IMG/VR virus record: IMGVR_UViG_2703718798_000003
Direction: 5' to 3' (one strand)
From: a virus
Lineage: Duplodnaviria > Heunggongvirae > Uroviricota > Caudoviricetes
Length of the DNA: 20,875 nt
This document shows, one piece after another, positions 3,345-11,735 of this stretch; within the stretch, counting starts at the first letter, position 1, and each line of letters opens with the position of its first letter. The notes beneath the pieces are model-generated. The model had not been told where the DNA came from and ran no database searches. It saw nothing but the letters and a program-made list of their open reading frames with translations. A program made the position numbers and the translations under genes.

Positions 3345-6300
3345 TTACTCCACTCCCACTTTTTTGTTGTACTCGCGGTTAAACCGATCCACGGCAATTT
3401 TCATATCCCGCTCTACCGATTTCACCATCGCCGACTGTTGCGCCAGACTGAGAGTACTGTCGGCGTAAATGGCATCACACTGTTTACGCAAATCCTTCAG
3501 TCTCTTCCGGGTATCCTGCATAAGCCCGTTCATCGACAATTTTCCGTTGTTCTCGTCAATGAACGCCGTTCTTTCTGCACCGGTCAGACTCTTCAGCTCT
3601 GCGTGATACTGCGCAACCTCTGTCATCCGGTCGTACATCTTCTGCTGGTCAGCATACGGCATCACCTCACCTGAAATTTTCCCCAGGAAAGGCACCTGCT
3701 GCTCCGGTATATCAATACCATTCAGCGATTTCACCGCCGCATCCGTGGTTTTAGAAATGAAGCGCCCTGTCCCTCCGGAGATATAGTCCACCCAGTATTT
3801 CAGCGATTCCGGTGTGATATCCACCGCGCCGGGACGGTACTGGCTGCCACCAGAGAACGCATTCAGCCAGGATGCAAACGCCTTGTACGCTTCTGGCGTT
3901 GAACGTCTTCCCAGCTGGCTGTCAGGTTTTGGTGTACCAAACGGCATGTTCTCCTGGTAAATCTGCGCCCCCATGAAGTTTTCATTCATGGCAAGGTTCG
4001 CAAACGGACGCAGAATGGTCGGCGCTGCATTTTTCAGCAATGCCCCGGACAGTGTTTCCGACGTCTCACTGCCAATCGGGCTGAATGCACCAAGCACACC
4101 ACCAACAACATTACCGGCAGCACGGGACGCCGTCAGGTCACCCGCCGCCACACCTTCAGCGGTATGCCCGAGCAGGAAGAAAACGTTGTACCCGTAAGGC
4201 AGAGGAATACTCCAGTACTCTCCGGCCTTGCCCCCGAACACCGATTTCATAATGACGAGGTTACGCTCTTTCACATGAGACGGCACCTTGTCATACCAGT
4301 TAACCCCGTCATCATCCTCACCCGCCACACTGCGGTTAAGCGAGCCAAGCAGATAACCTGCTCCCACAGCGGCAAGCGCGATTTTCTGCGGAACATTCAG
4401 ATTCTTCCAGCGAAGGCGCTCCAGTAAAGGTCCCTCACCATTAAGGTGTCCGAGCGTTCTCACCAGGTTTGCGGTCCCCTGAATGCTGGCGTTGGCAAAC
4501 ATATACAGCGAGTTCATCAGCGCCCCCTGCTCACCACGACGGTTAAAGTTCACCGTCATGTTTTTGGCAAGAGACGCCGCCTGCTGGCGTGACAAACCGG
4601 CATCACGGGCGTGTTTATAAGCTGACAGACGCAGTGCGTTTTCAACCGCGCCGTTGGCATCCTCGACCAGGTTCAGGAACGAATTCCATGCACCGATACT
4701 CTGGCCTTTCCATCCCCCCTTCGCCAGTGAGACAAGGCGATCCATTTCCTTCTGCTGGCCTTCAAGGTCACCCATGTTAAACCAGCCGGTTTTGCCTCCG
4801 TCCTCAACAAACTCTTTCCACACCTTCTGCCACTGTGTACCTTTGCCCGTGAGAGTTTTGCCTCGCAGACTGGCGTACACGGCTGACATTGCAGAACGGC
4901 TGTCTTTGACTACAGCCAGGGCGGATAAGTTATCCAGCCCTTTCAGTTTACCGTCGCTCCTTCCCTGCTCTGCCTTCAGGTTCATCACCGCCGTCTGCAC
5001 GTCACGGATGAAGTTACTGACCAGGAATTCCGGGTTATACGACGTGTTCACCGTTGCCAGGAAGCGGTTAACTTTCCCCAGCGTACGGATTACGGCGTTA
5101 CTGGTTTCCGGTCCCATATTCTTCATCGCACGCATCAGGCGCGGGTCATGGAGTTTGATGTAGTACGTTTTGCCGTTCTTTTTGGTGGTGAAGTACCGGT
5201 CTGCCATCATTGCCATCGCCACCGGACGCTCGACAACTTCGCGAATGGTTTCACCAGTTTCCTGGTCCTTGCGCTCTGCAATCACACGCATGGTATCCGG
5301 TCTGTCATCAGTGAATACCTGCCAGTAATCCTTGTCGGGATTATCCTGCACCAGTTTCAGGAAGGCGTTACCCACTTCGTTTTTGCGATGGCGGATCAGC
5401 GATTCGCTCAGGTCCTGTATCGCCTGAGTGGACGGAGACTGTGCACGGGATGCACGCCCCATGGCCTGCCTGCTTTCACGTCCGCCGATGGTGAAGCCCT
5501 TACCTGTACGGGGCAGTGACACCACACCGTCAACATCCTGGCCTTTCAGGGGAACGTAGTAACGGTAGGCGTTCTGCCAGGCATCCACCACACCGCTCTC
5601 TTCCAGTCCGGCCTCACGGATAAGCTCACGGCGACGGGCCAGCATATCGTCAACAATCCCTGCCAGACGGTCATACTGTGCCTGTTTGCCGCTGTTACGC
5701 ACACGCTGCATGATTTCCGCCGCCTCCGCGTTGGTCATCCCCGAACCGCCGTCCGGCATTTTCGGGTTGATTTTCGCGATATGCGCGTTACGTTCCGGCG
5801 CGTGACGGGCGTAGAGGTACTCATCCAGATCGGCCTGCGCAATCTTATAGTCCGCCAGTAATTTAGCCAGCGGCTGAACATAGCGCTCCTTCATCACGTT
5901 CAGGTCGTTTTCCGCCTTCCCGTGGAAGAGTTCTTCCGCCATATAAGCGTTGTTACTGTCGTCTATTTTTCCGCCAGTTTTACGGATATTCTCCTGAACA
6001 GCTTTCAGCACCTGGAATTTATCCTGCATCTGGCGCACAAAACGCGATGCAATTGTATCCTCCGGCGTCAGACTGCTGGTACGGGAGTAATACGGCCCCT
6101 TGCGAATATCCTCAGGATGTAGTATTTTAAATCCAGAGGAGCCGTTGATGGTGTTCGCCTCGGGCAATTGGAGCCCGACTGCATGAAGCCATTCAGCGGC
6201 TTTTTCTTTATTAAGATACAGCAAAGATGTATCAAGCTGATCCTGCAAAGCACTCCTTTTGTCCTTTCCATAGGCACTGGCAATTTTGTTTATCTCTGCA

Positions 6301-11735: not shown

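Follow-up and report, generated by a model that had tools for sequence, protein, structure and literature searches.

A giant late gene at the end of a Shiga toxin phage-type prophage

Herein we describe a giant open reading frame (ORF) in a stretch of 20,875 nucleotides from the virus record IMGVR_UViG_2703718798_000003 (Caudoviricetes), the whole of which is called the window hereafter. The frame runs on the minus strand, a point left unstated in the initial annotation of this DNA, and it is uninterrupted as that annotation had claimed, with 2,796 codons and a stop when counted from its second in-frame ATG (positions of the features are collected in Table 1), or with 2809 residues (3345..11774) when counted from the first. 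The encoded protein has a mass of about 308 kDa, an isoelectric point of 6.8 and one cysteine only, and its residues are numbered here with the Met at 11735 as residue 1. Our comparisons identify it as the giant late protein of the temperate podophages of the 933W/phi24B type (Sepvirinae). In fact, 186 phage records match the DNA of the frame with 92-98% identity, and nearly all of them are short-tailed Shiga toxin (Stx)-converting phages, such as VT2-Sakai, Stx1 and Stx2 converting phages, phi24B, P13374 and the PA series, and the gene is also found in the prophages of 426 of the 5426 complete E. coli genomes, the frame being intact in more than 420 genomes. The phi24B ortholog, gp47, shares 96.7% protein identity across the N-terminal 1039 residues, and RefSeq names the product either an "LPD5 domain-containing" or an "LPD38 domain-containing" protein.

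The giant gene is the last of the late operon and adjoins the prophage end, and upstream of it lie a nozzle gene, a needle gene, lom-type morons and five small or medium genes, where the nozzle, needle and internal roles were assigned from a phi24B preprint (10.64898/2026.04.10.717836). It is thus encoded among the virion genes of the phage, as polyvalent proteins are (PMC5512222). The initial annotation had considered such a position, after the tail-tip and moron genes, as atypical for a head-packaged protein. This view has to be abandoned, for the giant gene is the last late gene in the Vibrio, Burkholderia and Ralstonia relatives too, where a gene of about 470-530 aa and smaller genes precede it. 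The position also parallels those of P22 (genes 7, 20 and 16) and T7 (genes 14-16), in which the ejection genes come after the tail genes.

The most direct evidence on where the protein goes comes from phi24B. According to the preprint (a 2026 bioRxiv posting, 10.64898/2026.04.10.717836), gp47 is present in purified virions by mass spectrometry and is unseen in pictures taken by cryo-electron microscopy (cryo-EM) or with negative stain, and its authors proposed an encapsidated ejection protein, the internal location being inferred from absence in the map. The supplement reports 10,962 peptide-spectrum matches (PSMs), 422 peptides and 93.6% coverage for gp47, with an estimate of 11-35 copies per virion (mean 19), and none of gp47, gp48, gp50 and gp51 is resolved in the phi24B structure. 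By our calculation from these copy estimates, each head would contain about 6 MDa of gp47, and its internal protein would come to about 8 MDa. In phi24B the virion contains many copies of the whole ortholog, outside the resolved capsid and tail, in agreement with the internal virion or ejection protein that the initial annotation had offered as one of two possibilities. Moreover, mass spectrometry finds the homologous giant of the Burkholderia phage JC1, gp69, to be virion-associated as well, together with gp68, its upstream neighbour (PMC9144972).

Two zincin modules concealed from domain annotation

The other possibility offered at the outset was a polyvalent giant protein with zincin-like metallopeptidase (MPTase) modules, on account of two HExxH motifs some 270 residues apart. 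Both motifs and their contexts proved exact: HEWFH occupies residues 1284-1288 (context GALAHEWFHSLDNYFG) and HEIIH residues 1551-1555 (context REKLRHEIIHHAMEHVV), with a spacing of 267 residues. In the composition of this protein 0.036 HExxH motifs are expected by chance, and none of 5000 shuffles contained two or more. The profile search suggested then for polyvalent-protein and zincin domains returned four Pfam domains, namely LPD5, LPD1, MuF_C and LPD38, all of them above the Pfam cut-offs and all from families defined for the "polyvalent proteins" of phages and conjugative elements (Iyer et al. 2017, PMC5512222). Both HExxH motifs lie outside any Pfam match even at E up to 10, and relaxed Pfam searches on the two sub-regions gave no zincin family, the best match being Peptidase_M76 with E 0.19. 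Because the Pfam models cover neither HExxH region, standard Pfam annotation conceals both peptidase modules, each of which is zincin-like as described below.

The first module, around HEWFH, is of the CLCA_X type. The NCBIfam profile NF041907 (CLCA_X family protein) matches residues 1182-1437 with E 1.5e-43 over 243 of its 250 positions. CLCA_X is a zincin group of phages and plasmids with an HExxH...D consensus, its sister group being CLCA_N, a metalloprotease that cleaves itself (Lenart et al. 2013, PMC3650047); the active-site consensus of HExxH followed by Asp is present here as HEWFHSLD with D1291, and the zincin fold of the family is present in the module. Residues 1201-1460 retrieved 391 homologs in a word-indexed search, and the alignment of 115 diverse ones revealed a conserved block FGARGxG..AHYE..INLTK..GxGxLAHEWxHxxD around the motif. 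The conserved residues are H1263, H1284, E1285, H1288 and D1291, together with Y1369, E1375 and E1382 (ARxFE1382) in the LPD1 part, and H1263 and D1291 are kept in at least 97% of these homologs. As the phage-type MPTase clade is described as having a conserved His that ends strand 2 and, three residues behind HExxH, an Asp (PMC5512222), H1263 and D1291 fit this clade. An AlphaFold2 model of residues 1040-1460, built with 87 sequences, has a predicted local distance difference test score (pLDDT) of 87.2 and a predicted template modelling score of 0.79, and its elements follow the order of a helix, three strands, the HExxH helix and further helices. Seen in this way, Pfam LPD1 is the C-terminal helical half of the CLCA_X zincin, and the tail of LPD5 overlaps the zincin start. 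The nearest structural neighbours of the module are lethal factor, PPEP and MtfA, which are toxins or regulators cutting other proteins; a Foldseek search of the model against the PDB gave no significant match. Module 1 is absent from the giant proteins of Vibrio D56, Burkholderia DC1 and Ralstonia Gervaise. The LPD5-CLCA_X-LPD1 unit occurs also on its own, in proteins of about 330-450 aa encoded on long bacterial contigs (0.13-5.2 Mb).

As for the second module, a word-indexed search found close enterobacterial relatives only, and exhaustive HMMER of cluster representatives found 393 proteins at E<=0.001, mostly of 1500-6000 aa. Of 147 aligned segments, all keep the Glu and the second His of the motif, and 145 keep its first His. 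A further glutamate, E1607 (6915-6917), 52 residues downstream, is kept in 146 of 146. The third zinc ligand, which had been proposed as a check for each module, is hence probably this invariant E1607 in module 2, and in module 1 probably either E1375 or D1291. HEIIH with an invariant downstream Glu is a gluzincin signature, and module 2 is a small gluzincin. Its model, with a pLDDT of 65-84 over the module, contains the zincin MPTase core as set out in PMC5512222, that is an N-terminal helix, a three-stranded sheet, the HExxH helix and a second helix bearing the Glu, and the proteins listed for it are TTHA0227, YbeY, a "predicted zincin-like metalloprotease", IrrE/PprI, Spartan SprT, projannalysin and Wss1. 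When the two modules are aligned with each other by hhalign, the probability is 6.8% and only a strand and the HExxH helix are aligned, so the two are not close relatives. In Vibrio D56, module 2 lies at residues ~1943-2159 of the giant protein and was thought to have lost its motif, having no HExxH; this was rejected, since the alignment shows an HExxxH variant, HEILAH, and a plain HExxH search is misleading there.

The C-terminal module and its partners across podophages

The C-terminal module, which closes the protein, is shared with other phage groups. It is 40% identical to its counterpart in Vibrio phages, 28% to that of Burkholderia DC1 gp67 (4650 aa) and 26.5% to that of Ralstonia Gervaise (4511 aa), and has no solved-structure relative by sequence; in fact PDB sequence searches with the whole protein, with the module 1 profile and with the C-terminal profile found nothing. 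Directly upstream of it, module 2 is found in the same three groups (Vibrio E 8e-70, DC1 E 7.6e-15, Gervaise E 5.8e-14). When 110 large proteins bearing module 2 were searched with a four-sequence profile, 46 were found to have the C-terminal module, and 54 after iteration. All 46 proteins with both have module 2 upstream, at a median gap of -4 residues, and close with the C-terminal module. Most of the other large module-2 proteins have 880-1250 residues of another type after module 2, and two of four tested proteins without an LPD38-type end have an LPD39-type terminal region. A constant pairing of module 2 with LPD38 was thereby rejected, since about half of the large homologs have the LPD38 module; rather, as far as the sequences tell, module 2 seems always to precede a long terminal region of about 900-1100 aa, of which there are at least two kinds. 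Giants of the LPD39 type lack LPD38 and have a terminal region of about 900-1100 aa, and in one of them an inorganic pyrophosphatase (InPase) domain is present too.

The domains upstream of module 2 differ between lineages. For example, the DC1 giant protein carries SLT, an Eco57I-like methylase, a helicase (Helicase_C) and LPD3, and the Stx type carries LPD5 with CLCA_X, with MuF_C inserted between module 2 and the C-terminal module. At the other end of the protein, the Gly/Ala-rich segment of residues 161-408 is common to 40 of the 110 large module-2 proteins.

The MuF_C cassette

The segment around MuF_C has a history of its own. Its synonymous divergence (dS) from other alleles is 1.4-1.7, which is saturated, against 0.01-0.12 in the flanks, and the ratio of nonsynonymous to synonymous divergence (dN/dS) is 0.08-0.35 in every region of the giant ORF, as calculated against two other alleles, which points to purifying selection. 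Since dS is saturated while the flanks are nearly identical, the segment is a recombined and anciently diverged cassette, and not one under relaxed constraint. The allele of this window is rare, and is found at an identity of at least 99% in 4 of the 426 complete E. coli genomes bearing the gene and in one of the 186 phage records (PhiR5_2).

MuF-C is a predicted ribonuclease (RNase) of the PBECR type and not a peptidase (Iyer et al. 2017, PMC5512222). The phi24B preprint has a "MuF-C metallopeptidase domain" and assigns it to peptidoglycan degradation (10.64898/2026.04.10.717836). Because of the RNase prediction by Iyer et al., this domain reading needs correction: the real zincins are elsewhere in the protein and resemble protein endopeptidases.

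Start codon, neighbouring genes and other features

Besides the modules above, the Gly/Ala-rich N-terminus and the Pro/Glu-rich linker with GLP(S/A)PD repeats, which had been noticed from the start, are all present. The content of Gly plus Ala is 24-32% over residues 100-500, two GLP(S/A)PD copies are located at residues 811-832, a weakly hydrophobic stretch is located at residues 181-199, and weak glycine-zipper matches are seen at 406-433 and, as a second instance, inside LPD38. The initial annotation had seen no hemagglutinin, YD/Rhs, helicase or methyltransferase motifs, and no such family was detected in Pfam, PHROGs, NCBIfam or PADLOC, the last giving no match to the giant protein at all. 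A tape measure or tail fibre, which would have spoken for another kind of protein, was likewise rejected, with no such family in Pfam, PHROGs or NCBIfam. Moreover, Pfam searches, also at relaxed thresholds, gave neither a lysozyme nor an SLT or M23/M15 family, and no homology to annotated ejection or internal-core families was found in PHROGs and Pfam.

Table 1. Features of the giant ORF and of the genes before it, in window coordinates (residues are those of the giant protein)
Feature	Residues	Position	Strand	Remarks
Giant ORF	1-2796	3345..11735	-	Ortholog of phi24B gp47 and VT2-Sakai orf71; PHROG 616 match end to end
Gly/Ala-rich N-terminal segment	161-408	10512..11255	-	Common to the Vibrio D56 giant protein
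Pro/Glu-rich low-complexity linker	~700-900	9036..9638	-	GLPxPD twice, PQPE three times
LPD5	1051-1200	8136..8585	-	Pfam, E 6.5e-45; last ~20 residues overlap the start of zincin module 1
Zincin module 1, CLCA_X type	1182-1440	7416..8192	-	NCBIfam, model, alignments; PMC3650047, PMC5512222
HEWFH motif	1284-1288	7872..7886	-	HEWxH in ~97% of 115 homologs
LPD1	1361-1440	within 7416..8192	-	Pfam
Zincin module 2	~1480-1680	6696..7298	-	Strands, HEIIH helix, helical bundle
HEIIH motif	1551-1555	7071..7085	-	H, E and H kept in 145-147 of 147 homologs
Recombined cassette around MuF_C	~1690-1870	6126..6668	-	32-40% protein identity to the Sakai allele
MuF_C	1749-1847	6195..6491	-	PF18819, E 5.8e-23, 81 bits against a cut-off of 27.6
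C-terminal module, ~950 aa	1848-2796	3348..6194	-	Contains LPD38
LPD38	2479-2684	3684-4301	-	Pfam
GGAG Shine-Dalgarno		11741..11744	-	5 nt upstream of the ATG at 11735; read from the sequence
Terminator-like hairpin GCCCGGC-CATTGT-GCCGGGT, then seven T		11746..11772	-	Between the 421-aa gene and the giant ORF
421-aa Gln/Asn-rich protein (phi24B gp48)		11805..13070	-	~30 copies per virion; syntenic homolog in Vibrio D56
90-aa protein, RefSeq 'bacteriocin'		13081..13353	-	C-terminal hydrophobic glycine-zipper helix; syntenic homolog in Vibrio D56
150-aa protein (phi24B gp50)		13363..13815	-	~36 copies per virion
218-aa Gly-rich protein (phi24B gp51)		13812..14468	-	~22 copies per virion; syntenic homolog in Vibrio D56

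Between the two candidate start codons of the giant ORF, the second ATG, at 11735, is the better supported, because the GGAG lies 5 nt upstream of it, because the first ATG (11772-11774) falls within the overlap with the terminator-like hairpin, and because RefSeq annotates the shorter form in strain STEC1585. The start varies among public records, giving products of 2795, 2806 or 2811 aa. The hairpin before the giant gene may block transcription that is not antiterminated by Q in lysogens. Two further strong terminator-like intergenic hairpins are found on the coding (minus) strand, one at 15350-15368 directly after lom and the other at 14492-14511 between the 133-aa and 218-aa genes. The region has 16 terminator-like sites against 13.6 in the shuffled expectation, which means no excess.

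Three of the window genes upstream of the giant ORF have syntenic homologs in Vibrio D56 (Table 1). Among them, the product of the 90-aa gene was dismissed as a contaminant by the phi24B authors on the basis of 6 PSMs (10.64898/2026.04.10.717836). Because its place in the internal-protein module is conserved, it may be a genuine virion or ejection component that is low in abundance or poorly detected.

Downstream of the giant gene, the window contains an Eib-type moron (1-3281). A 332-aa ORF (1982-2980) therein has a YadA anchor and 93.5% DNA identity to the eibE region of phage P-EibE, and it is accompanied by an orf-156E-like ORF (1422-1967) and an Eaa-like autotransporter fragment (1-1093). 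Because of this eibE-like moron, the prophage has a putative immunoglobulin-binding adhesin where VT2-Sakai carries other genes.

Interpretation and alternatives

Taking these observations together, we consider it on balance probable that the giant protein is a head-packaged polyvalent multi-enzyme protein of a 933W/phi24B-type podophage, which exits the capsid along with the DNA. Module 2 and the C-terminal module would load it into the procapsid and then bring it out through the tail with the DNA, a role suggested by the N4 virion RNA polymerase, whose C-terminal region bears a zincin MPTase and is needed for encapsidation (Iyer et al., PMC5512222). The domains upstream would be a swappable enzymatic payload acting in the newly infected cell: the zincins would cut the polyprotein into working pieces, and/or cut host proteins, and the RNase-like domain would attack host RNA. 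Self-cleavage of the polyprotein is proposed by analogy with the self-cleaving CLCA proteins and follows a proposal of Iyer et al.

Several points weigh against this reading and should be considered with it. Packaging is known only for the phi24B ortholog, and the ejection into the cell would be a further step; zinc binding, catalysis and self-cleavage of the giant protein are likewise predictions. In gel slices of phi24B virions, from a sample six months old, the gp47 peptides are most numerous in the four slices above that of the 80 kDa portal, with a long tail (10.64898/2026.04.10.717836); the peak in the top slices is compatible with a mostly full-length virion protein and with no processing before ejection. 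The NF041907 match scores 149 bits against a whole-protein cut-off of 260 and is thus a match at the domain level, the shortfall being due to CLCA_X forming here one domain of a 2796-aa protein. For module 2 the confidence of the model is moderate only, and the MuF_C half of that model failed. Furthermore, about half of the large module-2 proteins end in another terminal module, for example of the LPD39 type, and no strong transmembrane helix was found in the giant protein, the best 19-residue hydropathy window being 1.38.

A broader form of the same idea may tentatively be put forward, as a possibility that we would not yet rely on. Module 2 and the terminal module of about 900 aa would constitute a generic loading-and-ejection chassis in podophages of the 933W, Bcep22, Ralstonia and Vibrio types, injecting about 20 copies per virion of a swappable payload, which in Stx phages would be the CLCA_X protease and an exchangeable RNase cassette. 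The conserved terminal portion with its lineage-specific payload suggests in any case a general enzyme delivery route for this podophage lineage. If the broader form is true, the infected cell would be reprogrammed or disarmed before the expression of any phage gene, the swapping of allelic cassettes would reflect an arms race with host defences, and the system would be a phage counterpart of polymorphic-toxin delivery, in phages that spread Shiga toxin.

Whether the zincins act on the giant protein itself is a question of its own. They could be effectors that cleave specific host proteins, for example of defence or of the stress response, without any polyprotein processing; this is one possibility listed by Iyer et al. 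(PMC5512222), and it suits the structural neighbours of module 1 (lethal factor, PPEP, MtfA), which cut other proteins, as well as the stand-alone LPD5-module 1 proteins of 330-450 aa, in which there is no polyprotein to process. We nevertheless find it doubtful, considering that the position of module 2 is tied to a terminal module in every lineage examined, which suits a role in cis, that CLCA_N, the sister of CLCA_X, is known for self-cleavage, and that no host target is known.

The phi24B preprint offers a primarily structural role, in which the protein refolds after ejection into a trans-periplasmic conduit extending the short tail, with a metallopeptidase digesting the peptidoglycan. Podophages do need ejected core proteins to span the envelope, as is stated in PMC11784390, and gp47 is abundant and internal, as are the products of the upstream genes, and the map resolves none of them. 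The C-terminal module is moreover the part common to all four phage groups, and to the weak glycine-zipper matches at 406-433 and in LPD38 comes the strong glycine-zipper helix of the co-packaged 90-aa protein. However, what the preprint takes for the metallopeptidase is the predicted PBECR RNase, and the resemblance of both zincins is to protein endopeptidases (lethal factor, MtfA, PPEP, SprT/Wss1, IrrE), not to cell-wall peptidases. Neither a lysozyme nor an SLT or M23/M15 family is detected, though the Burkholderia homolog has SLT; strong transmembrane segments were not found; and the lineage-specific payloads as well as the swapped RNase cassette are left unexplained. A primarily structural protein thus seems unlikely to us, and a conduit role may coexist with the delivery of an enzymatic payload.

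It is very improbable that the protein acts like DarB, shielding the incoming DNA from type I restriction. PHROG 10089 ('DarB-like antirestriction') matches residues 2354-2684, and the Bcep22-like homologs, which are virion-associated, carry the DarB-like label, but the match is confined to the LPD38 region, the methyltransferase and helicase behind the label in DC1 gp67 are absent here, and PADLOC has no match. That the frame is decaying or non-functional, with its HExxH motifs arising by chance, can practically be dismissed, given a frame intact in so many genomes under the low dN/dS described above, the 93.6% peptide coverage of the phi24B ortholog in virions, and motifs conserved across hundreds of homologs against a chance expectation of 0.036.

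To sum up, the literature already describes the protein family, including its zincin domains and its location in the virion, and nothing herein is new in kind. What is added is the fold-level placement of both HExxH motifs, the recognition of LPD1 as half of the CLCA_X zincin, the pairing of module 2 with a terminal region, the correction of the domain reading in the preprint, and the rare MuF_C allele. Stx phages spread Shiga toxin genes among E. coli, and about one seventh of their genome (8.4 of ~60 kb) is devoted to this protein. Two intact zinc-protease modules and a predicted RNase direct experiments to the right residues, from which the reading in the preprint would divert them.

Comparison with known systems

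The ejection proteins of T7 (gp14, gp15 and gp16) and P22 (gp7, gp20 and gp16) are internal to the virion, encoded after the tail genes and expected to leave with the DNA. The giant protein differs from them in being one enzyme-laden polypeptide of 308 kDa, not three channel proteins, and in having no lytic transglycosylase. The virion RNA polymerase of coliphage N4 is likewise giant and packaged in a T=9 podophage head, with a few copies per virion against about 19 for gp47; no RNA polymerase module is present in the Stx-phage protein, and no sequence similarity to N4-like phages was found in the phage collection.

Closer are the giants of Lessievirus, namely Bcep22 gp75, DC1 gp67 and JC1 gp69, and the Ralstonia homologs, which have the same terminal position and a virion protein of about 500 aa before them. 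They share with the protein described here a homologous module 2 followed by the LPD38 module of about 900 aa, at 26-28% identity (DC1, Gervaise), and these are the only parts in common: the Lessievirus giants carry SLT, an Eco57I-like methylase, a helicase and LPD3, whereas the Stx-phage protein is without these and has LPD5-CLCA_X and MuF_C instead.

With the CLCA_X family (PMC3650047; NF041907), module 1 has in common the active-site consensus and the spread over phages and plasmids, frequently as part of very long proteins, and its match to the profile is one at the domain level; only the eukaryotic CLCA_N has been shown to be catalytic and to cleave itself, and no CLCA_X member has. As for the polyvalent proteins (PMC5512222), the protein described here is built like them, being of giant size, encoded among virion genes and composed of several domains, which include LPD domains, more than one zincin MPTase and MuF-C/PBECR, and nothing is different in kind. 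Finally, phi24B gp47, VT2-Sakai orf71 (NP_050570) and the giant ORF of 933W are the same gene from end to end, in the same position and with the same LPD5/LPD1/MuF_C/LPD38 annotation, and what distinguishes this window from VT2-Sakai is the rare and anciently diverged allele of its MuF_C cassette together with the eibE-like moron downstream.

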